This document shows positions 9,765-58,768 of a DNA stretch of 64,000 bases, piece by piece. The stretch spans positions 148,627 through 212,626 of the forward strand of contig CAWITU010000002.1 of assembly GCA_963839205.1 (NCBI GenBank). The letters are read 5' to 3'. Positions within the stretch are counted from its first letter, which is position 1. Each line of letters opens with the position of its first letter. The notes under the pieces were generated by a model. The model did no database searches, was not told the DNA's origin, and saw only the letters and a list, made by a program, of their open reading frames with translations. The translations under genes and the position numbers were made by a program. The DNA comes from an uncultured bacterium. Its GTDB lineage: Bacteria; Patescibacteriota; Minisyncoccia; Phycocordibacterales; CAWITU01.

Positions 9765-9913
9765 GCATAGGATTCTATAGTATGAACTTTATAAAACAAG
9801 CAAAATCGGCATTTTAGATGAAATTTTTCTGAAAAAAGTCTAAAAAAGTCCTGAATGACGGCTTAAGATATGAGCGGTTGCATAACGAAATAAGCTATGG
9901 TACTCTTTCGCCT

Positions 9914-10411
9914 ATGACCGAGGAAACAACAATTGGCGATAATAAAGTATATGAGGCAGGATATTTGATCCAGCCAACTTTGGCTGAGGATCAGATCAGT
10001 GCTGAAGTGGTACTAATCAGAGATATTGTTGAGAAAAACAAAGGCGTTGTTATTTTTGAGGAATTTCCAAAACTCCGTCCTCTAGCTTATTCCATTTCTC
10101 CAACAACTTCTAAGGGCAGTTTTGACAGGGCTTATTTTGGTTTTCTTAAATTTACCGCTGAACCAGAAGATGCTAATTCAATAAAAGATATTCTTTCTAA
10201 AAAAGAAACAATCATTCGCTCTATTCTAATTAAAACAATCAAAGATAATACTATGTATGGTCCTAAGCTTGCTCGAAGTGATGGTGGAAGTAAACCAATT
10301 CGAAAGACGACCAAAGAACGTGGAGCATCTAAGGATTCAAAAGAAACCGCACCAGCTCCTATTAATGAAGTTGAGCTCGATAAAACTATTGAAGAATTAG
10401 TTGTTGAATAA
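9914..10411 (+). CDS. rpsF: 30S ribosomal protein S6 with C-terminal extension
   Basis: S6-like core (VYEAGYLIQP...FEEFPKLRPLAYSI). Conserved rpsF-ssb-rpsR order. ATG 9914 preferred over the tracked TTG 9878. Confidence 0.85.
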   Translation: MTEETTIGDNKVYEAGYLIQPTLAEDQISAEVVLIRDIVEKNKGVVIFEEFPKLRPLAYSISPTTSKGSFDRAYFGFLKFTAEPEDANSIKDILSKKETIIRSILIKTIKDNTMYGPKLARSDGGSKPIRKTTKERGASKDSKETAPAPINEVELDKTIEELVVE

Positions 10412-10416
10412 ATAAT

Positions 10417-10872
10417 ATGTATATAAACAAGGCTATAATCTATGGAAATTTGACAAGAGACCCTGAACTTAAGTCTCTACCATCTGGCCTACAGGTTGCA
10501 TCATTTGGGGTCGCTACAAACCGAGTTTATAAGGACAAGACTGGTGCTAAGCAAGAATCAACCGATTTTCATAATATCGTAGTTTTTGGAAAGCAGGCGG
10601 AGCTCGTTTCTCAATATTTGAAAAAGGGAAGTGGAATCTTTGTTGAAGGCAGAATGCAAACAAGGTCATGGGATGGACAAGACGGCCAGAAAAAGTATAG
10701 GATGGAGATCGTCGCTGACAGAATCCAGTTCGGACCAAAGGGTGGGTCCAGTAGCGGTAATTACGACAAGTCAGCTTCAGCTTCTAAAGCGCCAGCAAAA
10801 AGTGCTGCATCATCTGAAGAGGCAATACAATACCCAGAAGAAGAGATTAACGCAGAAGATATACCATTTTAA
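10417..10872 (+). CDS. ssb: single-stranded DNA-binding protein
   Basis: OB-fold SSB N-terminus ([15 protein letters not shown]), Gly/Ser-rich linker, acidic tail ending DIPF. Confidence 0.95.
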
Positions 10873-11135
10873 TGATAAAACAAAATTCAAAAAACATGCA
10901 GGCTAAACACATGCAGACCAATATTGCTCCAAAATCAAAACAGTGTTTTTTTGCGCAAAATAATATAAATCACATTGATTACAAGGATGTTGAGCTTTTG
11001 AAAAAGTTCCTTAATCCTCATGCTCGACTTCTTTCAAGAAAGAGAACAGGAGTTAGTGCTAAAAACCAAAGAAAGCTGGCTAATGCTGTAAAACGCGCTA
11101 GATTCATGGCCATTCTTCCTTTTGTTTCTAAATAA
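10872..11135 (+). CDS. rpsR: 30S ribosomal protein S18
   Basis: [46 protein letters not shown]. Its ATG (10872-10874) overlaps the last base of the ssb TAA stop. Confidence 0.9.
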
Positions 11136-11144
11136 TAAAAATAA

Positions 11145-14155: not shown

Positions 14156-15171
14156 TTACTTAAGACCCGCTTTTATTTCTTTGAGGATTTCATTTGCAAT
14201 TTTTGAGTTCTCTTTCAAAAATTGTCTTGTAGCATCATATCCTCTCCCTAGAATTTCCTCTTTATACTTGTATGAGTTTCCAGATTTGGAAATAATCTCC
14301 ATTTTTTCTCCAAGGGCGATGATTTCACCTTCCCTTGAGATTCCTTCGTTGTACATAAGATCAAATTCGGTCTGTTTGAATGGAGCGGCAACCTTGTTTT
14401 TGACTACTTTAACTCTGACACGGCCACCCATAATTTCTTCGCCTTTCTTAATCTGGGCAATGCGACGAATATCAAGACGCACTGATGTGTAGAATTTTAG
14501 AGCCTTTCCACCTGGTGTCGTTTCAGGATTGCCAAACATCACGCCAATCTGCATTCTAATTTGGTTAATGAAAATAACAATTGTTTTGCTCTTAGCGACG
14601 ATACTTGTGAGCTTACGAAGAGCTTGAGACATGAGTCTGGCTTGTTTACCAACATGCATTGCTCCCATATCACCCTCAATTTCATCTTTTGGAGTAAGGG
14701 CTGCGACTGAGTCTATAACGATTACATCCATCTTTCCTGATCTAACAAGTGATTCAACAATTTCAAGAGCTTGCTCACCTGTGTCTGGTTGAGAAATTAA
14801 CAGTTCGTCAATTTTTACACCAAGTCTTTTGGCGTATTCTGGGTCCATGGCGTGCTCGGCATCTATAAAAGCACAGATGCCATCTTTCTTTTGAGCCTCT
14901 GCAATGACATGAAGGGTAGAGTTGTCTTTCCAGATGATTCTGGTCCAAAGACTTCAATAATGCGTCCTCTAGGAAGACCACCGACTCCAAGAGCGGCATC
15001 TAATCCAATTGAGCCAGTCGAAATAGCATTAACATTAACTCTCGGTTTATCACCGAGCTTCATGATTGAATCTTCACCGAACTTACTTCTAATTTGTTTT
15101 AGAGTGTCTTCGACGTTTGTGACCCCAACTGTTTTATCTTCCTTTGGTTCTTTCTTTTTTCCAAATGCCAT
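14156..15171 (-). pseudogene. recA: recombinase RecA, reading frame broken once (near 14915)
   Basis: The N-part ends [10 protein letters not shown] (Walker A). The C-part, read in another frame, continues [34 protein letters not shown] single-base indel at cta-ccc-ttc restores a normal RecA. Confidence 0.9.
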
Positions 15172-22890: not shown

Positions 22891-22964
22891 ATGATTTTGG
22901 TTTGAGTGTAACTTGAAACTTTTCAGTTATAGTCAAAGTATTATAGATAAGCTATAATCGACAT

Positions 22965-23291
22965 ATGAAAAAAGATACAAGCAATAGGGCCTTAATATTT
23001 GCCGGAATTACTGTATCTCCAGAGGAGAGTTTTAGGGTTGGTTTAGAAATCAAGAAGATAGGGGGACTGACTTTCAGCAAGATTAAAAGAAGCAAAGAAG
23101 GTTGGTTTACCCAATGCGACCAGGTTCCAGGCATTATTGCTGGTAATACTAATCCCAATCCAGACAATGTTGAAATTGAAGCTCATATCCGACAGGCAAT
23201 AATTGCAGCTTTTAATATAAAAGTTGTCGGAGAAACTTCCATTGAGTCTCCTTTTAGGTTCGAGTATGACAGTGTCTCACATAAGGAATAG
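22965..23291 (+). CDS. HicB-like antitoxin-fold protein
   Basis: GWFTQCDQVPGIIAGNTNPNPDNVEIEAHIRQAIIAAF resembles the HicB/UPF0150 N-domain. A HicA-like ORF follows after 5 nt. Confidence 0.55.
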   Translation: MKKDTSNRALIFAGITVSPEESFRVGLEIKKIGGLTFSKIKRSKEGWFTQCDQVPGIIAGNTNPNPDNVEIEAHIRQAIIAAFNIKVVGETSIESPFRFEYDSVSHKE

Positions 23292-28704: not shown

Positions 28705-30424
28705 ATGAAGAGTGCTCTTATCAGGCTAAGATTTGTCTCGGTAATAATTATTCTCATTGGTCTGGTTCTTATTGTAAGACTTTTTTCTCTGCAGGTAGTA
28801 TCCGGTTCGGACTTTAGAGATGAAGCAAACCAACAATACATAGCACCGACTAGCAATATATACGACAGAGGTTCAATCTTTTTCCAGGATAAAGATGGAA
28901 ATCTTTTGGACGCTGCAAATCTTGAGAATGGATATATTATGGCGATTAATCCTGAATTGGTTACCGATCCAGAAGGTGAGTATTCTAAGATTCAAAATAT
29001 TTTACCTACTGACCACACCACATTCATCCAGAAGGCTACAAAGAAAAACGATAAATATGAACAAATTGCTGATAGAGTAAATTCAACAACTACTAATGCC
29101 GTGATTGCCTTGAATCTTCCAGGAGTAAGTTTTTATCAAGAAAAATGGCGTGATTATCCACTAAGTACGCTAGCCTCCCAGGTTATTGGATTTGTCGGCT
29201 ATGATGGGAATATTCTTGATGGGAGATACGGATTGGAAAAATATTACGACAGTACTTTGGAAAGGACCAACCAAGATCAAAATGTGAATCCTTTTGCTGC
29301 TCTTTTTGCTAGTATTCCTTCAGTTATAAATTGTGATTCCAACGCAAAAGAGGGTGACATTGTAAGTACGATTGATCCGAACGTTGAATCCTATCTTGAG
29401 CAAGAATTACAGACATTACAAGATGACTACCATTCAAAAATTTCTGGCGGAATTATTATTGACCCAAATACAGGTACAAATATATGCCATGGCTGGTAAT
29501 CCATCTTTTGATCCAAACACTTATCAAGATGTTGATGACATTGGAGTTTACACTGATCCACTGGTTCAGAATGTTTATGAACTTGGTTCAATTATGAAAT
29601 CAGTGACGATGGCAATTGGAATTGATACAGGAGCAGTTACCGCTACAACTACTTATGATGATACGGCCTCAATCACTTTAAACGGTAAGACAATTCACAA
29701 TTGGGATCTTACTAGTCACGGACTTATAAATATGCAAAAAGTCTTGAATGACTCTCTCAACGTTGGTGCGGCTTATGTCGAAAGTAAAACCGGTAATCAG
29801 AAGTTTGCAGATTACATGTTTAATTTTGGTTTTGGTGGAAAAACTGGTATCGATTTACCTGGTGAAGCCACTAATCTCGTAGCCAACTTAAAAAGTTCTC
29901 AAGATGTTAACTATGCGACAGCGGCTTTCGGGCAGGGTATTGCGGTAACTCCAATTTCAATGGTTCGCGCTTTGAGTGCGCTAGCAAATGGAGGCTATCT
30001 CATTACACCTCATATCATAAGCCAAATACAATATACAGATGGCACTGTTGAAAATATTAATCCACCAAAAGGGGCACAAGTTATCTCAACTTCAACATCA
30101 AAAATTATTACAGGAATGCTTGTAAATGTGGTGGACCAAGCTATGGATGCCGATGTTGGAGGTGGATTGAAACAGGCTCATTACGCAATTGCGGCAAAAA
30201 CTGGAACCGCCCAACTTGTTGATACTCAGGATGGTGGTTATTATGATAATCGATTTCTACATTCTTTCTTTGGCTATTTTCCAGCAAATAATCCACGTTT
30301 TCTCATCTTTCTTTTCACTGATGATCCACAGGGGCAGGAACTGGCTGTCCATACTCTAGCATTTCCTTTCATAGACATTGCTAAGTTTATGATAGGCTAC
30401 TATAGTATTCCACCAGATAGATAA
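28705..30424 (+). pseudogene. penicillin-binding protein 2 / FtsI-type transpeptidase (one apparent frameshift near 29475)
   Basis: N-terminal TM and dimerisation domain. Transpeptidase motifs S-I-M-K (SxxK), SLN, KTGT. The junction reads IIIDPNTG/QIYAMAGNPSFDPN. Confidence 0.85.
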
Positions 30425-32112: not shown

Positions 32113-33171
32113 ATGAAAATAATTTCCGTAGAAGAAGATAAAAAGAAAGAGTGGAATACTTTTGTTTCTGACAATTTTCCGCCAGTCGGTGCATTTCTAC
32201 AAAGCTTTGAATGGGGAGACTTCAAAGCCAAATTAAATTTTCCAGTTAAAAGGTATGCTGTTACTTCTGATGGCCTTTGGGTAGGATGTCTTCAACTTGA
32301 GACACATTCACTACCCTTTGGTTACAAGTATGGATATGTCCCGCGTGGGCCAGTTTTAAAAAAAGACATTTGGCATGATGCTAAATTAACAGAACAAATA
32401 TTTATAGAAATAACTAGATATTTGAAACAGCAATGTCCACTTTTTGTTTTTGTTCGTTTTGAACCACCTTATAAAAATTCTTTTAGTTGGTATAAAAGTA
32501 AACCATTTAATATTCCTTCGTATTATATTCAGCCTCGATTTAATCAAATAGTGTCTGTTGTCCAGACAGAAGAGCAATTGAAAGCTGGGATGGTTGCTGA
32601 TGTACGGCATGACCTTCGGGCAGCGGAAAGATTAGATATAAAAACTTGTGTTAAAGATTCTCTGAATGAATTTGATGATAAAGCTTTTGAAGCCATGAAG
32701 AGTGATACCTCAAAGAGAAGTGGTAAACAAATATTTCCAAACGATACCTATTTCTCTTTTTTATATTCAATTTTCAAAAATAGAAGTGGTATTGAAGAGG
32801 CTTCTCCATACATCAGATTTTTTATTGCAACAAAAGAGGATTCACCAGTTGCAATATACCTAGCGATTTTCTTTGCTCATACAGTTACCTATCTATACGG
32901 GGCCTCGTATTCTGGTTCAAAATCAAAAAGGGCCCCGGCCTATCTTCATTGGGGAGCGATTCAGGAAGCTAAAAAAGCTCAATTTCACTATTACGATATT
33001 GGAGGAGTTGATGAAGTCCTGTGGCCGGGGCTCACTTTCTTCAAGAAACAATTTGGTGGTAAGACTCTTGAATATGTTGGAGTAGTGGACTTTATCATTA
33101 ACCCTTTTCTATACAGTTTGTATTCTATTTTTAAGCGATGTTTATTAGCTACCAAACTTTTAAAGGAATAG
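32113..33171 (+). CDS. FemAB-family peptidoglycan interpeptide-bridge aminoacyltransferase
   Basis: FLQSFEWGDFK start and two GNAT-like halves, typical of the FemA/FemB/FemX family. Confidence 0.8.
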   Translation: MKIISVEEDKKKEWNTFVSDNFPPVGAFLQSFEWGDFKAKLNFPVKRYAVTSDGLWVGCLQLETHSLPFGYKYGYVPRGPVLKKDIWHDAKLTEQIFIEITRYLKQQCPLFVFVRFEPPYKNSFSWYKSKPFNIPSYYIQPRFNQIVSVVQTEEQLKAGMVADVRHDLRAAERLDIKTCVKDSLNEFDDKAFEAMKSDTSKRSGKQIFPNDTYFSFLYSIFKNRSGIEEASPYIRFFIATKEDSPVAIYLAIFFAHTVTYLYGASYSGSKSKRAPAYLHWGAIQEAKKAQFHYYDIGGVDEVLWPGLTFFKKQFGGKTLEYVGVVDFIINPFLYSLYSIFKRCLLATKLLKE

Positions 33172-33174
33172 TTT

Positions 33175-33335
33175 GACAATTTTGTTATTATCAGTAAACT
33201 GCTCTACATAAGGCCAGAGACAACAGGCGACCAATAAGTCCTGTCTAGGCGATAGTTTTGAACTTTGTTCAGAACTTTCCGATCTACAATCGGCCTTACA
33301 AGGTCGATTATTTATTTGTCTAAAACAAATACACA
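33175..33335 (+). promoter_or_regulatory. rplJL promoter (TTGACA-16-TAAACT) and structured 5' leader (possible L10-leader-type autoregulatory RNA)
   Basis: TTGACA at 33175, then a roughly 130-nt leader with long-range AAGGCC/GGCCTT pairing and internal hairpins before the rplJ ATG. Confidence 0.3.
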
Positions 33336-33824
33336 ATGCCATTATCAAGAGAAAAAAAGAAAGGAATACTCGAAGATTTGAAAAGCCATTTGGTTAAAGC
33401 CAAAAGTGCTGTCTTCGTAAATTTCCACGGTTTATCTGTCGGTGACGCCACTTCACTTCGTAAGTCTTTAAAGACTGCTGGGGTTGATTATGTTGTTGCT
33501 AAAAAATCTTTGGTTAGGAAAGCTTTGTCAGATTCAAAAATTGAAGGAACACTTCCTCAGTTGGATGGGGAATTGGCAATCGCTATGAGCCAAGATCTTA
33601 TTGCTCCAGCTCGTGGAGTTTATGAGTATCAGAAAAAACTTGATGGAAAGGTAGCGATTCTCGGAGGAATTTTTGAAGGGGAATATAAAGACAAAGAGGC
33701 CATGGTCTCTATTGCTTCAATTCCACCTCTTCAAGTTCTTTACGGTCAGTTCGTCAATCTTATTAACTCTCCGCTTCAGGGTTTGGTTATTGCATTAAAT
33801 GCAGTAGCTGAAAAGAAGCAATAA
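33336..33824 (+). CDS. rplJ: 50S ribosomal protein L10
   Basis: L10-like sequence, with the rplJ-rplL order conserved. Confidence 0.95.
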
Positions 33825-33846
33825 TTATTCATTAAAATTTATTAAC

Positions 33847-34251
33847 ATGTCAGAAGACACAACAAATACTGGAGTAGTTGAAACTCCTTCAAAGTTCAAA
33901 ACGGTTGTTGATTCAATCGAAAAAATGTCAGTTATCGATCTTCATGAATTGGTAAAATTCTTGGAGGTAAAGTTCGGAGTATCAGCCGCTGCTGTCGCAG
34001 TTGCTGGTCCTGCAGCCGGAGCTCCTGCTGAAGAAGAGAAATCAGCCTTTACTGTTGAATTAACAGATTCTGGTGCAAACAAGATTTCAATTATCAAAAT
34101 TGTTAAGGAAGTTTTGGCTCTTGGCCTTAAAGAGGCTAAGGATCTCGTTGATGCCGCCCCTTCTAAGCTTAAAGACGGTATGAAGAAGGATGAAGCAGAA
34201 GCTCTCAAGAAAAGAATTGAGGAAGCTGGCGGAAAGGTAACATTGAAATAA
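33847..34251 (+). CDS. rplL: 50S ribosomal protein L7/L12
   Basis: Ala-rich hinge ([19 protein letters not shown]) and conserved C-domain ([19 protein letters not shown]..). Confidence 0.97.
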
Positions 34252-36435: not shown

Positions 36436-37243
36436 AACCATCACGACTGAATTATGTTAAAAACATCCAATTTTAAGCGGCCAAAATAACAGCTATTTTT
36501 AACTGTTGTCTTGAGAAGACCGCTAAAAGCGGTTTTTTTAATAACATAACCGACTGTAACTTGAAAAAATAATCCCGCAGCAACGTTCCCTTTTATACAA
36601 GGGGTCTTTAAGACGTTGAACAGCGGAAACAGGTAAATTCCAAACAGTAAGTTTGGAATAGTAGAATAAACAAAAAACGTGGTTTTTAAATATCCTAATA
36701 GGATATTAAGAGCGTATGGTGGATGCCTAGACTCCAAAGAGGCGATGAAGGACGTGGCGTAGCTTACGATAAGCTTCGGGGAGGTGCCTAGCAACCTTTG
36801 ATCCGAAGATTTCCGAATGGGGAAACCCCACTTGATTTAATTCAGGTGATCTCTTCGCAAGAAGAGGAGCAAACCCGGGGAAGTAAAACATTTCAGTACC
36901 CGGAGAAAAAGAGACTAATAAGAATTTCCTAAGTAGCGGCGAGCGAAAAGGAAGAAGCCCAAACTCAGCCTTCCTATAGAGGGCACTCGTAAACTCGTTT
37001 ACTCGAGTATGCGTCGTACACTCTATTGGGTGGCTGGGGGTTGTAAGGTGACAGTCGTATTTGATACAAAGAGTTACAAAATAATTCGTTAATAGAAAAC
37101 GCTGGAAAGCGTTGCCCTAGAGGGTAATAGCCCCGTACATGAAAATGAATTATCTCTAACTGTCATTCTTGAGTACTTCGAGACACGAGTGGCTCGGAGG
37201 AATCTGCCGGAACTAACCGGTAAGGCTAAATACTCTTGGAGAT

Positions 37244-37282
<39 letters not shown>

Positions 37283-38721
37283 GCCCGACGAGGGCAGTGA
37301 AATAGATCTGAAACCATACGTTTACAAGGTGTCGAAGAGGTGCTTGCACCTCGACGGCGTGCCTATTGAAGAATGAGCCAACGAGTTGATGCATATTGCA
37401 GACTAAGCCCGAGAGGGTGGAGTCACAGGGAAACCGAGCGTGAATAGCGCGTAAGTATTATGCATCAGACCCGAAGCCAAGTGAGCTTGTCATGTGCAGG
37501 GTGAACCAGGGAGAAATCTCTGGGGAGGCCCGAACCGGTAAGCCGTTCAATACTTTCGGACGACATGTGATAAGAAGTGAAAAGCTAATCGAACTTGGTA
37601 ATAGCTGGTTCTCTCCGAAATAGCTTTTGGGCTAGCGTCGGATGTTCCTCTTAGGGGTAGAGCACTGGAAGGTCTCGACAGGTCGAAAGATCGCGAGACC
37701 TATCAAACTCCGAATACTAAGAGTTAAGAATCCGGCAGTTAGACTGCGGGGGCTAAGCTCCGTCGGTCAAAAAGGAAACAGCCTAGATCTCAAGTTAAGG
37801 TCCCTAAATTTATGCTAAGTGCACTTAAGGCGGTGAAATTTCTCTGACACTGAGGAGGTTGGCTTAGAAGCAGCCATCCTTTAAAGAAAGCGTAACAGCT
37901 CACTCAGTAAGAGATTTCGCACCGAAGATAATCGGGGCTAAGCATAGTACCGAAACTGAGGGTTTATTTTGTCTTAGGACAAAGTGAGCGGTAGGAGAGT
38001 ATTCTAATCTGCTGTGAAGGTAAAGGGGTGACCCATACTGGAGCGTTTAGAAGTAAGAATGTTGGCACAAGTAACCACAATGCGAGTGAAAAACTCGCAC
38101 GTCGAAAGATCAAGGTTTCCTTGGCAATGATTGTCAGCCAAGGGTTAGTCGGGCCTAAGGGGATGGCGAACGCCGAACCCAATGGACACATGGTTAATAT
38201 TCCATGACTTCTTCATTTTCTGATGGAGTGACAAAGGTCAGTATTGTACGCGATTTATGGATTATCGTTATTGGATTAAGGGTGTTTTACAGGCAAATCC
38301 GTAAGACATAAGCCCAAGATCAGATAAAATGCTTCGCTTAGGCGAAGATAATGTACAAAAGCGGCCTTTCAAGAAAAGCTTCTAAAGATAAAAATGAAGG
38401 AACCGTACCGCAAACCGACACAGGTGATCAGCTCGAGTAGAGCAAGACGAACGAATGAGAGGTCCCCAAGGAACTCGGCAAAAAAGCAGCCGTAACTTCG
38501 GAATAAGGCTTGCCCTTTGTTAACTCAAAGGGCCGCAGCTAAAGTATCTCTGGCAACTGTTTATCAAAAACACAGCTCCCTGCGAACTCGTAAGAGGATG
38601 TATAGGGGGTGACACCTGACCAATGCCAGAAGGTCAAATATCGACGTTGATAGTAGCAATATTATTGGTGATTGATATAAGCCCTGGTGAATGTCGGCGA
38701 TAACTATAATCGTCCTAAGGT

Positions 38722-38956
38722 TCTCAACTGATTCTTTTTGAATGAGTTGAGAAGGACTGGGACGATCATAGGAAATGATAAATAGTTTTAATAATCAAAG
38801 TTAATTACACAAAAGCTACCTACAATGCAGTAATGTATTGTTAGTCCAATATGGTTAATAAGAGACCAACACCATACATCCTAAACAATTTTGCAACGGA
38901 CTTGTCCTCTGCGAAGTCGAAGGATGAAGATAGAGTCCAACTTGAAGGAATAGTTG
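38722..38956 (+). other. 235-nt group-I-like intron/IVS in 23S after U1931
   Basis: The flanks join to CCTAAGGT|AGCGAAATTCC (conserved sequence). The insert follows a T and ends in G. R/S-like blocks AAGAGACCAACA and AAGATAGAGTCC. No ORF. Confidence 0.65.
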
Positions 38957-39619
38957 AGCGAAATTCCTTGTCTGGTAAGTTCAGACGCGCACGAATGGTG
39001 TAATGACTGGAGAACTGTCTCGGGGACTTGTTCGGTGAAAATACAATACCGGTGAAGATGCCGGTTACCTGCAGTTAGACGAAAAGACCCCAGAAGCTTT
39101 ACTACAACTTGGTATTGAGGATATGTTTTTGATGCGTAGCATAGTGGTGAGACTTTGAAGTTTTGTTCTCGGATAAAATGGAGTCAACAGTGAAATAGCC
39201 ATCTTTAAAAATATATTTTCTAACCTCATCGGTAAAAACGGTGAGAGACAGTACCTGGCGGGTAGTTTTAGTGGGGCGCTATCCTCCTAAAGAGTAACGG
39301 AGGAGTTTATTAAGGTTAGCTAGGCGCGAATGGAAACCGTGCCGATAGTGTAATGGCATAAGCTAGCTTGACTGCAAGACGGATATGTCGAGCAGGTGCG
39401 AAAGCAGGACATAGTGAACCGACGGTCCGTATTAGATGCGGCCGAAGATTATCAGACAAAAGCTACTCTGGGGATAACAGGCTGGTTGCGCCTAAGAGTC
39501 CAAATCGACGGCGCAGTTCGGCACCTCGATGTCGGCTCATCATATCCTGGGGCTGGAGAAGGTCCCAAGGGTTTGGCTGTTCGCCAATTAAAATGATACG
39601 CGAGCTGGGTTCAGACCGT

Positions 39620-39916
39620 TCAGAATCGAATTTTTTCGGTTTTGGACCGTCTGAATCGTCGAGGAAATATTATTGTTGCGACCACGCAATATCTGTTAAC
39701 TTGTCCATCACGGCGGCCATAAGGAGAAATTCTTGTGTGCACAGCTGACTTATATCGGTGAATTCCACATTCTATGAAAAGAAGTGCGAGGACGCCTAGG
39801 GAAAATAAAACGAAATTTTATTGCCCGTAGAGACTAAACGTCAGCCATCTTCGTTTGAATTTATTCAAAACAGATGATTACATAGTCCATTCCACACAGT
39901 GATGTGTGAAAAGAAG
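39620..39916 (+). other. 297-nt group I intron in 23S after U2593 (peptidyl-transferase centre)
   Basis: The flanks join to GGGTTCAGACCGT|CGTGAGACAGGTT. The insert follows a T and ends in G. R-like GTAGAGACTAAACG (39827-39840) pairs via GACTA/TAGTC with S-like ACATAGTCC (39880-39888). No ORF. Confidence 0.75.
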
Positions 39917-39968
39917 CGTGAGACAGGTTGGTCTCCTATCTACTGCAGGCGTTGATTTTTGAGAAGAT

Positions 39969-39999
<31 letters not shown>

Positions 40000-40310
40000 T
40001 GACCTCTGGTGTGTCGGCTGTCCTGCCAAGGGCACTGCCGAGTAGCTAAGTCGGGAAAGGATAAACTCTGAAAGCATCTAAGAGTGAAGCCTACTTCAAG
40101 ATTAGAAATCGTAAGACCCGTAGGAGATGACTACGTTGATAGGCGCTAGGTGTAAGACAAGCAATTGTTTCAGCCGAGGCGTACTAATTGTCATTCCTAT
40201 TAGGAAATTTGGAAGTCACGCATTTGTTTATCGGCGCAGGCGAATATCAGTTGAAAAGGTTTTGCGCCACAGAATACCTGTTTAAATAAATTAAAGATCG
40301 AACGTTCAAT

Positions 40311-40419
40311 TCTGGTGATTTGGCGGAAGGGCAACACCTGTTCTCATTCCGAACACAGAAGTTAAGCCTTCTTGCGGCGATGATACTCTTTTGGAGGGGA
40401 AAGTAGCTAGTCGCCAGTA
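40311..40419 (+). rRNA. rrf: 5S ribosomal RNA
   Basis: TCTGGTGA..CCGAACACAGAAGTTAAGC..TCGCCAGT with paired termini, about 100 nt after the 23S. Confidence 0.9.
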
Positions 40420-40557: not shown

Positions 40558-40866
40558 ATGGCGAATATTCTATTTGTTGGTTATGGCTATGACGAGGCAC
40601 ACAGGTTGCGCATAAAGGTCGGGGAGATTTTGAAGGAAATTTCCTTGGATAAGGAGTCGATTACCACGGTGGTTCAAGCACAAACTTATCCTGCCGACGT
40701 TTGGCAAAGTGCTGATATGCCTAAACTGGAGGCCCCGTTCATAATGGTCAGGGATACTGACCTGGTTAAGGCCAGAAAAATTGCTGAAATTATCAATGAA
40801 CGTCTGGTTCAGGACGTTGAGATGCAGATAATTGAGGCTTTTTTCCCCAAAAAACCTGCAACGTAA
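40558..40866 (+). CDS. hypothetical protein (GC-richer, strong SD)
   Basis: 102-aa ORF preceded by GAAGGAGGTGAGTTGA-ATG. No recognised domain. Confidence 0.5.
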   Translation: MANILFVGYGYDEAHRLRIKVGEILKEISLDKESITTVVQAQTYPADVWQSADMPKLEAPFIMVRDTDLVKARKIAEIINERLVQDVEMQIIEAFFPKKPAT

Positions 40867-40935
40867 TAAAAGAAAATCAAAACCGAAAGCCCACTTGGGT
40901 GAGTAGGTTTTTCTTTTGTCTGTTATAATATCTCC

Positions 40936-41706
40936 ATGTCATCTTGGGCTCAAAGAAAACAAGTTACCTACGCCAGCATCATAATTATTGTTTTTTTGTT
41001 GATAATTGGAATTCCAATTTATTTTGCATTCTTCAGACATGCACCAAGCTGTTTTGATGGGATTCAAAATCAAGGTGAGGTGGGTGTTGATTGTGGTGGG
41101 CCATGTTCTAAGCTCTGCCCTGACGAAGCACAAAATCCAGTAACTCATTGGACCAGATTTTTTGAAATATCTCCTGGAGTTTATTCAGTAGTGGCGGATG
41201 TTGAAAATCCAAATATAGGAACTTTTGCCGATAATGTTCCTTATTCCTTCAAATTATATGATGAAAATAATGTTCAGATTGCTGAAATTGATGGATCAAC
41301 ATTTATTTTACCAGGAACGCAATTTCCGATATATGAAGCCGGACTTCTTACGGGGGATAGAATTCCTGTAAGAGCCGATTTTGAATTTACTGCGACTCCT
41401 GATTGGCAGAAGAAAAGCTATTCTTTACCCGGGTTAGCAATCATTAATCAATCATTTAGCGCTAGTTCTTCGCCTAGACTGGAGGCCGATGTTCAGAATC
41501 AATCTGATTACACGATAACAAATATTGAACTTATTGCTTTGGTTTATGACGAGAACAACAATGCAATCGGAGCATCCAAGACAATCATCGATTCTTTAGC
41601 ACCAAAAGCGACAGGTAATGCAGTATTTACTTGGCGCGATCAATTTTCTAGTACATCTTCTAAAGAGGTTATTACCCCTGTCGTCTATCCCACTTTCAAG
41701 CAGTAG
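40936..41706 (+). CDS. TM-anchored extracytoplasmic hypothetical protein with Cys-rich motif
   Basis: TM (IIIIVFLLIIGIPIYFAFF), then CFDGIQNQGEVGVDCGGPCSKLCPDE and a beta-rich domain. Directly upstream of rodA. Confidence 0.5.
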   Translation: MSSWAQRKQVTYASIIIIVFLLIIGIPIYFAFFRHAPSCFDGIQNQGEVGVDCGGPCSKLCPDEAQNPVTHWTRFFEISPGVYSVVADVENPNIGTFADNVPYSFKLYDENNVQIAEIDGSTFILPGTQFPIYEAGLLTGDRIPVRADFEFTATPDWQKKSYSLPGLAIINQSFSASSSPRLEADVQNQSDYTITNIELIALVYDENNNAIGASKTIIDSLAPKATGNAVFTWRDQFSSTSSKEVITPVVYPTFKQ

Positions 41707-47165: not shown

Positions 47166-49417
47166 ATGATTAAAACAAGAGTTATTGCCGCTTCGATTGT
47201 ACTTCTGGCCTTGGTCATTGGTGCTTTCAACTATTATTCCGAATTTAAACCGGCATCTTTTGTCGGTGGTTTTCCTTTTAAATTAGGTCTAGATTTAAAT
47301 GGTGGTTCAGAGCTTACATATCAAGCGGATGTTTCTAAAGTTGATCCAAGCGATGTTGCTGGATCTATGCAGGCTCTACATGATGTCATTGAAAATAGAA
47401 TTAATGTTTTCGGTGTTTCCGAACCGGTTGTTGAAACTCAAGAGGCGACACTTCTAAATGGACAGAAAATCCAAAAGTTAATTGTTCAGCTTCCTGGCGT
47501 TACGAATGTTAATGAAGCAATTTCAATTATCGGCCAGACACCGGTTTTGGAATTTCGTTTAGTAAATCCAGCTAAGGCAAAACTTATTACAGCTTCTTCA
47601 ACCCAAGCTGATATTGACGCCGCTTTCGTTCCAGTTGGTCTTACAGGCAGATATTTACAAAGTTCACAAATTCAATTTGATTCACAAAGTGGACAGCCAG
47701 TTGTGTCTTTAAATTTTAATACTGAAGGCGCTGCGATTTTTGCTTCAACAACTAAAAATAATATTGGTCAGATGTTGGCGATATTCTTGGACGGCAAAAT
47801 TATTTCTAGCCCAGTAATTCAGCAGGAAATTGATAACGGTCAGGCCCAAATATCAGGTGGTTCAATGACTGCGTCAGAAGCCAAGACTTTGGCTCAGAAT
47901 TTGAATTATGGTGCACTTCCAGTTCCAATCACACTTATTGGTACTCAGACAATTGGTGCCTCACTTGGTATTGATGCCTTGAATAGAAGCGTTAAAGCTG
48001 GTATTATAGGCTTTGCAATAATCGTTCTATTCCTTATCCTTTGGTACCGATTGCCGGGACTATTGGCAGGAATTTCACTTTCAATATACGTTCTCATGAT
48101 GCTCGCAATCTTTAAGTTGGTTCCAGTAACACTTACCGCAGCTGGACTCGCAGGTTTCGTTCTCTCTATCGGTATGGCTGTTGATGCGAACATTCTTATC
48201 TTTGAAAGAATGAAAGAAGAACTTCGAAATGGTAGAACTCTAGAGGATGCGACACGAGAAGGATTCACACGAGCTTGGACATCCATCCGTGACGGAAACC
48301 TATCAAGTATTATTACTGCAATCATCTTGTTCTGGTTCTCCAGCACCTCAGTTATCAAAGGTTTTGCTTTAATCTTCGGAGTTGGAGTTTTGGTAAGTAT
48401 GATTACAGCCATCAGTATTTCTAGAACATTCCTATTGGCTGTGACACCAAAGAGTAATTCAAAATTTGTGAGATTTTTATTCAGTAACGGATTTAATTTA
48501 ATAATCATGTTCGTCATTAAATACAGAAAAATATTCTACTCATTCTCAGCACTGCTCGTGGTTATTTCAATCGCCTCACTTTTAATTTGGGGCCTTCATT
48601 TCGGAGTTGATTTCACCGGTGGTTCAGTTTTAAATGTCTCATACTCTCCAGCACGTCCATCATTGGATATAATTAATGCTCAAGTTAAGCCTCTTTCCTT
48701 ACAATCAACTAAATTCAGCCAAGCGGAAACAATGGTTACATAATTACGACTAAAGCACTTACAGAAGATCAACATCAAGGTCTTCTAAATGCCATTTCTC
48801 CTAGTGGAAGTTCAACGCTCACGGTTGATAGTTATAATACAGTTGGTCCGATACTTGGTTCGGAACTAGAAGGGAAGTCAATCGTCTCAATTATTTTAGT
48901 TATTATGGCCATTGTTCTTTTCATAACCTGGGCTTTCCGAAAAGTTTCGGAACCTGTTTCTTCCTGGATCTATGGTCTCATCGCCATTTTTGATTTGATT
49001 CACAACGTTATCGTGCCTGTGGGTATCTTTTCAATTGTTGGACATTTCTTGCACTTCCAAGTAGATACACTTTTCGTTAACGCAATTTTGGTTATTCTTG
49101 GTTTTTCTATTCACGATACGATTGTTGTATTCGATAGAACTCGTGAGAATTTGAAATTAAATAGAGAACATAATAAGAAAGAATCTTTTGATAACGTTGT
49201 TGGGCGAAGTATTAGTCAGACTATGGTCAGATCAATCAATACTTCACTTACAGTAGTATTTACACTGCTTATCCTGTATTTCTTCGGCTCAACTACTACC
49301 AGAGACTTCTCGATGGTTCTTCTCGTTGGTATCGTGGTTGGTACCTATTCCTCAATCTTTTTGGGTTCTCCTCTCCTAGTTACTATTGAAAAGTGGCAGA
49401 ATAGAAAGAAAAACTAA
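47166..49417 (+). pseudogene. secDF: fused protein-export membrane protein SecD-SecF (one apparent frameshift near 48730)
   Basis: SecD periplasmic domain and 6 TM, then a SecF N-terminus in the same ORF. The frame changes at ..SQAG/NNGYIITTKALTEDQ.. and the SecF TM bundle continues to 49417. Confidence 0.9.
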
Positions 49418-49462: not shown

Positions 49463-49837
49463 ACCCCCTACGTCCTTAATGGGCGGTTCTTTGAAAATTA
49501 TCTGTCTAAAATCACGATTTATCTTGAATTTAGACAGATTGAAATATTGCCCTGTGTAGCTTTAGCGTAGAGCGGGTAGGACCGAGAACGTATTAACGCT
49601 CTGTATTGCCTCCTATCGAGCAGCTATGGAGGGAAAACGTGCAAGTCAATTAAAATATTTTTTTGTTCTCCCGCGGAGCTCGTCAGAGCAAAGTGGGAGT
49701 AAATAATTCCAAAAACAATGATCAATTGTTGGATGAGCTAGGATCAAACTTGTTGGTGAAATATAAATTTAGATTAAGTACTATTTTTTATTTTGCCTCA
49801 TTCTAATAAATATAAGTATTTATACTTTTTATTTAAT

Positions 49838-51324
<1,487 letters not shown>

Positions 51325-51493
51325 TGAATACGTCTCACGTTCTTCGTAAGAAGGGCGTGGGGCTGACAGTGTCGATGTTGCGGGTTCCAATTGGACTCAC
51401 AACGGATAATGATGAATAATCCTTAAAAATCATTGGACATTTGGGAAAGACCAGAAAATAAAGAATGAGGCAAAATAAAGGATGGTACTGAAT

Positions 51494-51524
51494 AGAGAGG
51501 GCGGCCCAAAGGGCCGCCCTCTCT
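51494..51524 (+). terminator. terminator after the 16S trailer
   Basis: AGAGAGGGCGGCCC-AAA-GGGCCGCCCTCTCT. Confidence 0.75.
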
Positions 51525-51819
51525 TGCTATTTGTATAAGTTTATGATATAATCCTTAGACAAATAAACATTAGCCTACTTGAAAGGGGGTGTAGGGCATT
51601 GATCAATAATGAAACAAGTACTCCAGAAATAAGAATCTAGAGGATGAAATTCGTCCTTATGGTTCTCCTATCTCCCTTCGTGGTCTTTACGGTGTGGGCA
51701 ATCGCTTGCACGTATCATGAGTCTCTACAGGAGATAGGGAGTCGAGCCGGCGTGGAAACATTCGCGCCGGCTCTTTCTTTTTCCTGCATCTTTTGTTATC
51801 TTAAGGAAGCTTCTTTTGC

Positions 51820-51895
51820 GCGCGCATAGCTCAGTTGGTAGAGCATTCGACTGATACTCGAAAGGTCCTAGGTTCGAACCCTAGTGCGCGCACCA
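51820..51895 (+). tRNA. tRNA-Ile (anticodon GAT), CCA encoded
   Basis: Manual cloverleaf: acceptor GCGCGCA/TGCGCGC, D arm GCTC-AGTTGGTA-GAGC, anticodon loop CTGATAC, T arm CTAGG-TTCGAAC-CCTAG, ACCA. Confidence 0.9.
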
Positions 51896-51969: not shown

Positions 51970-52344
51970 ATGATTTCATCTATACGTGCTGTGTCGGTTA
52001 CTCGTGTTGTGCCAGTCGTTCTTTATCTTTTCCGAAAAGTATTAATTCCCCCCGAAGCCTATCTAAAATTAAGATTGAGAAAATTTGAAAATTGGCTAAA
52101 AGCCTATCCTGGAAGAATGCGATTAGCTGAATTTGAGGAGGATGCTAAACTTCAACTTGATGATCACCTTGAGACTGTCAGACAAGCCTATCGGCTCTAC
52201 TTAAAAAGTGATGGTTATACTTATATTAGTTTCCCGGGAGTAAGGTTTATTTTTCAAAGGCCTGAAGCAGAAATCAATGAGCTAACCGTTCATTGTGTGC
52301 TCTGGAAAATCAGAGCTACTCAATTAGGCTGGTCCATAATATGA
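51970..52344 (+). CDS. hypothetical protein (SD-bearing)
   Basis: 124-aa ORF preceded by AAAAGGGGAGCTCC-ATG and followed by a GC-rich terminator. No recognised domain. Confidence 0.45.
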   Translation: MISSIRAVSVTRVVPVVLYLFRKVLIPPEAYLKLRLRKFENWLKAYPGRMRLAEFEEDAKLQLDDHLETVRQAYRLYLKSDGYTYISFPGVRFIFQRPEAEINELTVHCVLWKIRATQLGWSII

Positions 52345-52397: not shown

Positions 52398-53451
52398 ATG
52401 CAAAATAAAAAAACTAAATATAATTGCCACAATTGGTCCTGCTACTGAAAGTCAGTCACAGTTAGAAAAACTACTCAAAGCGGGTATGACTTTCATGCGC
52501 CTAAATTTTTCGCATGGTGATTTTGAAGAGCATGCTAAGAAAGTTAAGAATCTAAAGAAGGCTTCCAAGGCTACTCATATGAAGGCAATAACATTTCAGG
52601 ATCTCGGGGGACCAAAAATACGAACTGGAGAATTTCATACTCCAAGTGGTAGGGCCCATATTGAAGCAGGTGAAAAGTTTATACTTACCACTTTAAAAGC
52701 AAAAGGAGATGGAACCCGAGTTCATATAACTTACAAGAAATTACCAAAAGAAGTTAAAGTCGGTCATCGAATTATGCTTGATGATGGAAAAAAGGAATTG
52801 GATAGTTACTTCCATAAAAGGAACAGAGATTATTACTAAAGTAATCGTCGGTGGGGAACTCAAAGGGAGACGCGGAGTTAATCTTCCTGATACCAATCTT
52901 TCAATCAGTTCACTAACATCGAAAGATAAAAAAGATTTAATTTTTGCTATTAATCATAAACTTGATTATGTCGCGCTTTCATTTGTCAGGATCCTTCTGA
53001 TGTGATTGAACTTCGCAAAATTCTTAAAAAAGCTGGATCAAAAGCTGGTATCATTGCGAAAATAGAAACACCTCAGGCTGTAGACCATATTGATGAAATT
53101 ATAAAATTATCTGACATGATTATGGTAGCGAGAGGAGATTTGGCAGTTGAAATTCCTGCTGAAACAGTTCCATTGGTTCAGAAAATGATTGTTAGAAAAT
53201 GTAATAAGGCTGGTAAGCCAGTCATTGTGGCCACTCAGATGTTTGAATCAATGATCCATGCTTCAACACCAACTCGCGCCGAAGTCTCAGATGTGGCTAA
53301 TGCGGTCTTGGACGGCGCAGACGCTGTTATGCTCTCAGAAGAAACCACTTTAGGTTCTTATCCGATTGAATCAGTAGTTATGATGAATAAAGTAATTACT
53401 GCAACTCAAAAGGAAATGCGAAATCCTCATTTTCTTAAACACATAGTCTAG
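52398..53451 (+). pseudogene. pyk: pyruvate kinase (A/B domains only), about 3 apparent frameshifts
   Basis: [78 protein letters not shown] 52398 is out of frame across a 7-A run. Further frame changes near 52805 and 52995. Confidence 0.85.
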
Positions 53452-57497: not shown

Positions 57498-58768
57498 ATG
57501 AAAGAGGAAATAAATATTTCTGATATTAAAAATGTCTACTTTATAGGCATTGGTGGTATTGGCATGTCCGCTTTAGCTCTCTATTTAAAACACCTTGGGA
57601 AGAATGTTGTCGGTTCTGATACTGGCTTCGCTTCGTATGAAAATTTAGTTGAAACTGGTATAGATGTTCACAAAGATTATGACTCAACCAGAATAACTTC
57701 TTCGTATGATGTTGTTGTTTATACTTTAGCAACTCCGAAAGATAATGAAGAACTTTTGAAAGCGGGTGAGTTGGGACTGCCAATCTTCACTTATGCTGAA
57801 ATGTTGGGTTTGGTCTCAAAGAATAAAAAAACTATCGCTATCTCGGGCACTCACGGTAAGACAACTACCACCGCCATGGTCGCTAAAGTATTAATTGATG
57901 CCGGCCTTTCACCAACTGTTATTGTTGGAAGTTTACTTAATTATCCTTTTGGCCAATCAGAAAAGAAAACTAATTTTATTGCAGGCGATAGTGAATACTT
58001 TGTCGTTGAGGCGTGTGAATATAAAAGATCATTTTTAAATTTATATCCATATATTTTGGTAATAACAAATATCGAAGCTGATCATTTAGATTATTATAAG
58101 GACCTCAGTGATATTCAAGAGGCATTCAAGGAGTTGTCAGATAAGGTGCCGAAAGATGGTCCATAATCACTTCAGCGGAATATGACAAGTATATTCAGTC
58201 AGTACCACCTTTAATGAAACCAGGAGAACATAATCGGAAAGATGCTGCTGCGGCATATGCTGTGGCTAAGAAACTTGGAATTCCAGAGGAGGTGATAAAG
58301 AAATCACTTGCTGATTTTCCAGGAACCTGGCGACGGTTTGAATACAGGGGAAAAACTCAAATTGGCGCCTTAATTTATGATGATTATGGTCATCACCCAA
58401 CCGAAATTAAAGCTACATTAGAAGGAGCCAGAGAATTGTTTGGAGATAAAAAAATAATTGCCGTTTTTCAACCTCATCTATACAGCAGAACTAAAGATCA
58501 CCTTCGTGATTTTGGTGAAGCGTTCACAGATGCAGATAAAGTTATTATTGCTCCAATCTTTGCTGCAAGAGAACCATTTGATGATTCAATCTCTTCTGAG
58601 ATGCTAGCTGAAGAAATAAATAAAAATGAAACTGGAAAAGCCCGCGCTATTTCATCTTTCGATGAAATAGCGCGGGCACTTCTTTCTGAAATTTCTTCAA
58701 ACGACGTAATAATTACTATCGGCGCAGGTGATATCTACAAAGTCATTGATCATCTGATGAATAAGTAG
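57498..58768 (+). pseudogene. murC: UDP-N-acetylmuramate--L-alanine ligase (frameshift near 58165; shortened central segment)
   Basis: GIGGIGMSALA, ISGTHGKTTTTAM, NIEADHLDYY, then after a frame change ..PGEHNRKDAAAAYAVAKKLG..GTWRRFEY..DDYGHHPTEI. Confidence 0.85.

Follow-up and report, generated by a model that had tools for sequence, protein, structure and literature searches.

Pairing between the Shine-Dalgarno (SD) sequence and the anti-SD is the textbook mechanism for start-site selection in bacteria. The stretch of DNA analyzed here (the window, 64 kb in length) carries a 16S rRNA gene whose 3' tail lacks CCUCC, which raises two questions: what stands in the place of the anti-SD, and how would such a ribosome find its start codons? 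The explanation that we regard as very probable is that the source organism is a member of Parcubacteria/Paceibacteria, that this clade has lost both the anti-SD and the Era-binding GAUCA and has gained an A/U-rich tail, and that translation starts independently of SD sequences. This explanation covers 64 kb of genome and the rrs copy within the window. Below, we discuss the tail and its distribution, the signals found upstream of genes, and the alternative readings that the same evidence bears on.

The 16S rRNA gene lies on the forward strand at 49834–51324, boundaries set by a full-length match to Rfam RF00177 (model positions 1–1533) that scores 1350 bits against a gathering score of 50 and has all helices present; the conserved tail reaches a few nucleotides beyond, to about 51329. 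Helix 45 (51288–51311, forward strand) is intact, as a sequence-only reading of this DNA had held. In a local Infernal alignment it forms a 10-bp stem, with CACGGGUAGC (51288–51297) pairing with GCUGCUCGUG (51302–51311) around a GGAA loop (51298–51301). The tail that follows, G-AAUAUUUCAAAUUGAAUA at 51312–51330, aligns to the consensus GGAUCACCUCCUU but is missing CCUCC. Column by column, the 14 nucleotides past helix 45, GGAAUAUUUCAAAU, match the model's GGAUcACCUCCUUu in the local Infernal alignment, with UUUCA standing for CCUCC and GAAUA for the Era-binding GAUCA; the tail letters GAATATTTCAAATTGAATACG are located at 51312–51332. The resulting CCUCC-less 3' tail, which belongs to a kind designated type I below, spans 51312–51329 on the forward strand (G-AAUAU-UUCA-AAU-UGAA-U), and ~17 nt past helix 45 are conserved. 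The earlier claim that CCUCC is absent from the tail is therefore borne out, and the related claim that neither CACCTCC nor CCTCC occurs between helix 45 and the processing stem can be extended: CCTCC, CACCT and ACCTC are all absent from 51313–51819, that is, up to tRNA-Ile at 51820. The sole partial anti-SD match in this interval is CTCCT at 51665, and ATAATCCTTAA, which the same reading had placed near 51415 as the nearest match, sits at 51416–51426. All coordinates and sequences given in that reading are correct. The window's 16S rRNA consequently differs from a canonical 16S rRNA, which has CCUCC inside the ~13-nt tail past helix 45, and also from the Bacteroidota type, in which an anti-SD is present but unused.

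The surrounding rRNA genes are unlinked and follow an unusual order: 23S-5S (36696–40419), 9.4 kb of protein genes (FtsW, glycosyltransferases and SecDF among them), and a stand-alone 16S (49834–51524) with its own processing stem and terminator-like hairpin, with tRNA-Ile lying ~300 nt beyond the hairpin. The 23S rRNA (36696–40204) measures 3509 nt against a 2925-nt model, indicating several insertions, one of them ~55 nt long at 36973–37025; a 126-aa open reading frame (ORF) at 39368–39748 lies inside the 23S gene, where no Rfam intron family is matched. Within the 16S gene, the 515F primer region is altered by a C-to-A change (GTGCCAGCAGCAGCGGTAATAC, 50288–50309), and the 341F region reads CCTACGGGTGGCCGCAG (50140–50156). 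Because these universal-primer sites are altered, standard amplicon surveys may under-detect the lineage.

The window has a G+C content of ~38%. Among the loci listed, its closest 16S sequences come from Paceibacterota/Parcubacteria MAGs at no more than 86% identity, and the homologues of a neighboring epimerase are labelled Paceibacterota, Parcubacteria or Giovannonibacteria. These similarities identify the source organism as a deeply branching member of Parcubacteria (GTDB Paceibacteria = Minisyncoccia; CPR/Patescibacteria), an affiliation drawn from 16S and protein similarity.

The search for relatives took a single genome for each GTDB species and used a pattern in which the 5' flank, top and loop of helix 45 were fixed and the lower stem and downstream sequence were left free; it yielded at least 120 loci. 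The helix 45 of the window, CACGGGTAGCGGAAGCTGCTCGTGG, recurs in at least 108 loci, all of which lack CCTCC and all of which carry Patescibacteria-type labels. Among the matches listed, 12 loci with a different lower stem retain AUCACCUCC / ATCACCTCC, the exception being L067, which has AUCAUCUCC / ATCATCTCC; Magasanikbacteria and one Bdellovibrionota MAG are among these anti-SD-keeping loci. The anti-SD-less matches listed include the named lineages Nomura-, Zambryski-, Taylor-, Kaiser-, Adler-, Lloyd-, Jorgensen- and Staskawiczbacteria, and the cultured Minisyncoccus archaeiphilus likewise lacks an anti-SD. The exact helix-45/tail 27-mer of the window, GCTGCTCGTGGAATATTTCAAATTGAA, is found in 17 separately deposited metagenome contigs, whose downstream sequence differs from one contig to the next and from the window. 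Aligning the 3' ends of related 16S genes, a check proposed in the sequence-only reading, thus recovers the CCUCC-less tail in at least 108 loci, and the window shares with anti-SD-less Parcubacteria/Paceibacteria its affiliation, the missing CCTCCT and the clade's tail. Judged by these sequences, absence of the anti-SD is a trait of the whole Parcubacteria/Paceibacteria clade, in which the tail has evidently been replaced rather than left to drift.

The replacement tails among the loci listed are of two kinds. Type I, with the consensus A-W-U-A-W-UUCA-NNN-UGAA-A, includes the window and is also found in loci labelled Nomura-, Zambryski-, Taylor-, Kaiser- and Adlerbacteria. Type II reads AUCAWUUAUUU (AUCAUUUAUUU) and includes Minisyncoccus archaeiphilus PMX.108 (locus L042). 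It is further seen in L105 and 16 other loci, with Microsyncoccus archaeolyticus, Staskawicz- and Jorgensenbacteria among its carriers. Type II tails keep AUCA and have no hairpin potential; they look like a canonical tail after C-to-U decay.

If the anti-SD has been lost, SD sequences would be expected to leave little trace upstream of genes. Starts were assigned as the first ATG of the longest ORFs, a naive assignment that blurs signals, and the SD-like 4-mers GGAG, GAGG and AGGA were counted at −20 to −4, with −60 to −44 as the control region. They precede 4 of the 62 window genes (6%) against 5 of 62 (8%) in the control region (p = 1), and 73 of 498 genes against 61 of 498 in related anti-SD-less loci (p = 0.31). 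The same script applied to 50 kb of E. coli returns 17/40 (42%) versus 5/40 (12%; p = 0.005). This E. coli region was taken as the positive control because anti-SD-bearing CPR loci provide too few genes (44 ORFs); in that small sample, the counts are 6/44 and 2/44 (p = 0.27). The duplex energy between the mRNA and a canonical tail shows no dip 5' of the start codon in the window genes. The SD-enrichment analysis that the sequence-only reading had called for, run here on the window's 62 genes, thus finds no enrichment where E. coli is positive, and its suggestion that SD-independent initiation has gone to completion is supported at the scale of the 64-kb window. Individual SD-like sequences do occur: a 102-aa ORF at 40558–40866, which starts 139 nt after the 5S gene and has no Pfam or NCBIfam match, carries a perfect SD, GAAGGAGGTGA, 8 nt before its ATG, and the ORF at 51970–52344, just 3' of tRNA-Ile, is preceded by the SD-like AAAGGGGAG. 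In related loci, AAGGA is mildly enriched upstream (29 vs 7).

The only strongly enriched upstream motif is instead a −10 promoter box. TATAAT-like boxes were scored when starting at −15 to −10, with starts at −45 to −40 as the control. They are present in 17 of the 62 window genes (27%) versus 3 of 62 (5%) in the control (p = 0.001), and in 113 of 498 versus 26 of 498 genes of the relatives (p = 5e-16), while E. coli gives 1/40 versus 3/40 (p = 0.62). The position of the box peaks at −12. TATAAT itself is the top enriched upstream 6-mer (57 vs 5), and TATACT and ATAAT are enriched as well. Within the window, forward-strand TATAAT hexamers end 6 nt 5' of the ATG at 278–283 (upstream of an msrA-like gene at 290), at 22953–22958 (an ORF at 22965) and at 40924–40929 (a gene at 40936). 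From a hexamer at −12 to −7, transcription would be expected to begin at the A of the ATG, and a −10 box ~6–7 nt from the start codon is the spacing by which leaderless genes are recognized. We infer from this spacing a leaderless-mRNA signature in about one quarter of the genes. For 12 more of the 62 genes, the gene upstream on the same strand is no more than 25 nt away or overlaps, an arrangement compatible with translational coupling or re-initiation. One short gap separates rpsF (bS6) from ssb, which follows 5 nt later (9878–10872). The TTG start assigned to rpsF at 9878 is probably wrong, because the Pfam S6 match begins at residue 25 of the ORF; the 273-nt gap 3' of ssb could hold rpsR, and the one arbitrary frame inspected there (10900–11144) has stop codons.

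Taken together with the tail, these observations suggest a way in which translation might start in this organism. The ribosome would choose start sites independently of SD sequences. In about one quarter of the genes, where the −10 box ends ~6–7 nt before the ATG, transcription would begin at or beside the A of the AUG, and the resulting leaderless mRNAs would be bound by ribosomes through their 5' AUG. Many other genes, which lie 1–25 nt from an upstream gene or overlap it, may be reached by re-initiation or coupling. Upstream of the remaining genes, the sequence is A/U-rich and a poor pairing partner. The replacement tail itself would not pair with mRNA; its ~17-nt conservation, its self-complementary core, the variable hairpin beyond it and the GUCG(A/G)U motif may instead point to a role in 3'-end maturation or in docking at the 30S platform.

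The tail has some features that a functional element could be expected to have. Its information content is high at positions 1–10 and fades past ~17, and its self-complementary core, UUCA/AAU/UGAA (51318–51328, forward strand), could form a 4-bp mini-hairpin. In a register-free count, hairpins of at least 3 bp with a G-C pair are possible in 79 of the 88 distinct type I tails versus 20 ± 3.8 in mononucleotide shuffles, and hairpins of at least 4 bp in 48 of 88 versus 6.9 ± 2.4, counts that come from related sequences and so are not independent. Twelve distinct stems are represented, including UUCA/UGAA, UUCC/GGAA, UCC/GGA, UCCA/UGGA, CUCA/UGAG and UUUC/GAAA. Because the MAFFT tail alignment is ungapped and therefore unfit for differing loop lengths, a covariance model was built and the 88 tails were realigned, leaving out 15 spurious weak matches. 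Double changes on this alignment are confined to two pairs and three cells, and the percentage paired is 96.6 versus 95.6 in column shuffles, with columns nearly invariant and variant registers gapped out. The mini-hairpin has a computed ΔG of +0.2 kcal/mol at 37 °C and −1.4 kcal/mol at 15 °C. Given the kinship of the sequences, the weak covariation and the marginal ΔG, we describe the core as a conserved, self-complementary motif that could form a hairpin, and we do not regard the helix as proven.

The RNA beyond the tail is also organized. The pre-16S processing stem is formed by an inverted repeat of 32 nt (I1, 88% complementary) with its 5' strand at 49773–49804 and its 3' strand at 51462–51493, both on the forward strand, the latter beginning where it had been placed from sequence inspection; a structured trailer of ~130 nt separates it from the tail. 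The first trailer hairpin (51332–51363, forward strand) begins 3 nt past the conserved tail and has 14 bp and a GUAA loop, with a folding energy of −22.3 kcal/mol (z = −3.8). Its counterparts in relatives are unrelated in sequence and comparable in stability (mean z = −2.2 across 101 distinct sequences). It is followed by GUCGAU (51371–51376, forward strand), an instance of a clade motif, GUCG(A/G)U, which is found as GTCG(A/G)T 15–140 nt past helix 45 in 92 of the 126 anti-SD-less loci listed versus 5.9 expected, at a median distance of 50 nt. A second trailer hairpin occupies 51377–51403 on the forward strand; in relatives, the hairpins are often topped by CUCGAUCGAG or CUCGUACGAG. The order of tail, stable hairpin of variable sequence, GUCG(A/G)U and second hairpin is conserved across the clade (loci L002–L137), which suggests a clade-specific route of 3'-end maturation, and the trailer architecture may be the corresponding processing signal. 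Directly 3' of the processing stem, a G+C-rich perfect hairpin of 14 bp (51494–51524, forward strand; inverted repeat I3) resembles a terminator. At the other end of the transcript, the 16S leader at 49734–49767 is complementary to 49826–49859 over 34 nt (76%), covering about the first 25 mature nucleotides including AGAGUUUGAUCCU; this pairing looks like a helix between the precursor leader and the 5' end.

These features invite a stronger proposal, which we put forward as speculative and probably incorrect: that the anti-SD has been replaced by a functional module comprising the tail or mini-hairpin, the stable hairpin and GUCG(A/G)U, acting either as a 3' extension of the 30S subunit or in Era-independent maturation. 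If the module served maturation, it would define an Era-independent pathway specific to Paceibacteria; if it were a retained extension of the 30S subunit, the ribosome would be biased toward leaderless or re-initiating mRNAs. For the loss itself, a rationale is offered by the specific recognition of GAUCACCUCC by Era (PMC10582724), together with a 2025 study in which der and rplA are missing from Paceibacteria and era from most of them (PMC12641178): both GAUCA and CCUCC could then drift.

The particular version of this proposal in which the tail, the trailer hairpin and GUCGAU are kept in the mature rRNA, replace the SD helix at the platform and mRNA exit and actively favor leaderless (70S-type) initiation appears improbable to us. 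The clade-wide conservation of the tail-hairpin-GUCG(A/G)U-hairpin order and the unusual distance of the processing stem, ~130 nt downstream, speak for this version. However, processing signals that are cut away typically take the form of hairpins of variable sequence beside a mature end, hairpin 1 is missing from type II relatives such as Minisyncoccus, and the proposal is built on sequence.

A further reading retains base pairing and changes only its letters, such that the A/U-rich tail, AAUAUUUCAAAUUGAA, would pair with a co-evolved A/U-rich motif located upstream of, or just inside, coding sequences. We consider this highly unlikely. Conservation of ~17 nt of the tail across the clade does imply some selection, and the upstream regions are A/U-rich. 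Nevertheless, enrichment at −20 to −1 is seen for none of the 5-mers or 6-mers that could pair with the tail, which argues that there is no replacement SD/anti-SD pair. Across −60 to +18, the computed duplex energy between mRNA and the organism's own tail does not dip at the start; the own tail pairs no better than shuffled tails, and −21 to −9 is the weakest-pairing part. The motifs that are enriched are promoter boxes at a fixed distance, and earlier surveys saw no variant anti-SD with a matching variant SD (PMC6107228).

There is very little to recommend the idea, raised in the sequence-only reading, that an intervening sequence separates helix 45 from the real tail, whether the true anti-SD is displaced by an intron or made by processing or splicing. 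CPR rRNA genes often hold insertions, as the 3509-nt 23S gene here does relative to its 2925-nt model, ~130 nt of structured RNA lies between the tail and the processing stem, and one relative, L040, carries GGATCACCTCC 383 nt 3' of helix 45. This idea is rejected because CCTCC is absent from 51313 to tRNA-Ile, Rfam finds no intron family, and CCTCC within 400 nt downstream occurs at chance level in the 108 relatives listed (11 loci vs 13 expected), at scattered positions of which none is fixed. Furthermore, the nucleotides adjoining helix 45 are the best conserved of the tail, unlike an insertion junction, and nothing identifies the sequence between helix 45 and the tail as an intron or intervening sequence. 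The L040 motif (L040:4215–4230, minus strand), an 11-nt match to the canonical tail inside a G+C-rich stretch, is missing from the sister locus L119 and is treated as an isolated, non-conserved curiosity.

Equally negligible is the chance that the tail is an assembly or sequencing artefact, or that the gene is a pseudo-rRNA gene decaying along with its genome. Frameshifts do split at least five of the window's protein genes, and one frameshift fits a missing A in an A-run, but the departure from the canonical tail is a substitution block and not an indel, the remaining 16S scores 1350 bits with complete helices, the same 27-nt helix-45/tail occurs in 17 separately deposited metagenome contigs, and close variants occur in at least 108 genome loci. 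Because the block consists of substitutions and is reproduced in other deposited contigs, the tail is not a frameshift-type error, and the possibility allowed for at the outset of an assembly error at 51312–51330 does not hold. The split genes encode SecDF (47166–49417), pyruvate kinase (52400–53451, in three frames), RecA (14156–15171), MurC (57498–58768) and a penicillin-binding protein (28705–30424), and the SecDF break is the one that fits a missing A, in the A-run near 48712. These five splits are either assembly indel errors or pseudogenes, and single-base indels may be present elsewhere in the window.

The preferred reading, a clade-wide loss of the anti-SD with SD-independent starts, is in its core already known: two reports (Tsurumaki 2022 and PLoS One 2024) describe a part of Parcubacteria as having lost the anti-SD. 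A class that lacks the rRNA half of the SD/anti-SD pair is a natural experiment in SD-free translation, and its existence is already published. The window makes a modest addition. It brings the clade another deeply branching member, it indicates that the replacement tail is conserved and not the product of random drift, and its promoter spacing suggests that leaderless mRNAs partly make up for the loss. In the limited literature searched, the conserved replacement tail, the trailer architecture and the leaderless promoter signature are undescribed in Paceibacteria, and nothing specific was encountered on leaderless translation or ribosome structures in Patescibacteria. Since a type II relative, Minisyncoccus archaeiphilus, is in culture, the mature 3' end and the mode of initiation are directly testable. 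There are also practical implications, as anti-SD-based annotation of 16S 3' ends and gene finders that assume SD sequences may mishandle such genomes.

Among known systems, Mycobacterium and Deinococcus are rich in leaderless genes and place the −10 box a short, fixed distance ahead of the start codon. Unlike the window organism, they keep a canonical anti-SD, along with SD sequences for their leadered genes. The leaderless state proposed here is deduced from promoter spacing, for about one quarter of the genes. Mammalian mitochondrial mRNAs are also leaderless. Mammalian mitochondrial 12S rRNA likewise lacks an anti-SD (PMC10582724), in an organelle rather than a bacterium such as the window's, and Nanoarchaeia combine a 16S rRNA lacking the anti-SD with leaderless mRNAs (PMC10783764) and belong to another domain.

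In bacteria, tails without the consensus CCUCCU are found in Flavobacteriia/Bacteroidota, Mycoplasma, Carsonella, Hodgkinia and Nasuia (Lim 2012; PMC6107228), and, as in the window, SD sequences are unenriched and no compensating new SD is seen in Flavobacteriia/Bacteroidota, Mycoplasma and insect endosymbionts (PMC6107228). Across a wider survey, Amin 2018 counted 128 taxa elsewhere with a variant or absent anti-SD and no matching variant SDs (PMC6107228). All of these lineages (Flavobacteriia/Bacteroidota, Mycoplasma and the endosymbionts) are unrelated to the window organism; many Bacteroidota keep an unused anti-SD, whereas here it is gone in all listed loci that share the window's helix 45.

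The closest counterparts are the anti-SD-less Parcubacteria, which resemble the window in clade, in missing CCUCC(U) and in SD-scarce genes (PMC9297842, PMC10783764), and to none of whose loci listed here is the window's 16S more than 86% identical. In Tsurumaki 2022 (RNA 28:1041), CCTCCT is present in only 48% of Parcubacteria, and the anti-SD-less members overlap a group lacking uL1 in which SD helices presumably do not form (PMC9297842). Campbellbacteria and Wolfebacteria are described in the second report as lacking CCUCC and being scarce in SD sequences (PLoS One 2024, PMC10783764). The generalization offered in the sequence-only reading, that even lineages making little use of SD sequences retain the anti-SD, therefore meets published exceptions that include this very clade (PMC9297842, PMC10783764). 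That the Parcubacteria clade has lost Era, Der and uL1 fits the loss of the Era-binding GAUCACCUCC. In the window (32113–34251), rplJ (33336–33824) and rplL (33847–34251) are preceded by a FemAB-family gene and not by rplK-rplA, an arrangement that is consistent with loss of uL1 but is not proof of it. Whereas the published accounts of Parcubacteria, in the parts available, give the absence of the motif only, the window adds to them a conserved tail, a structured trailer and a promoter spacing that suggests leaderless mRNAs.
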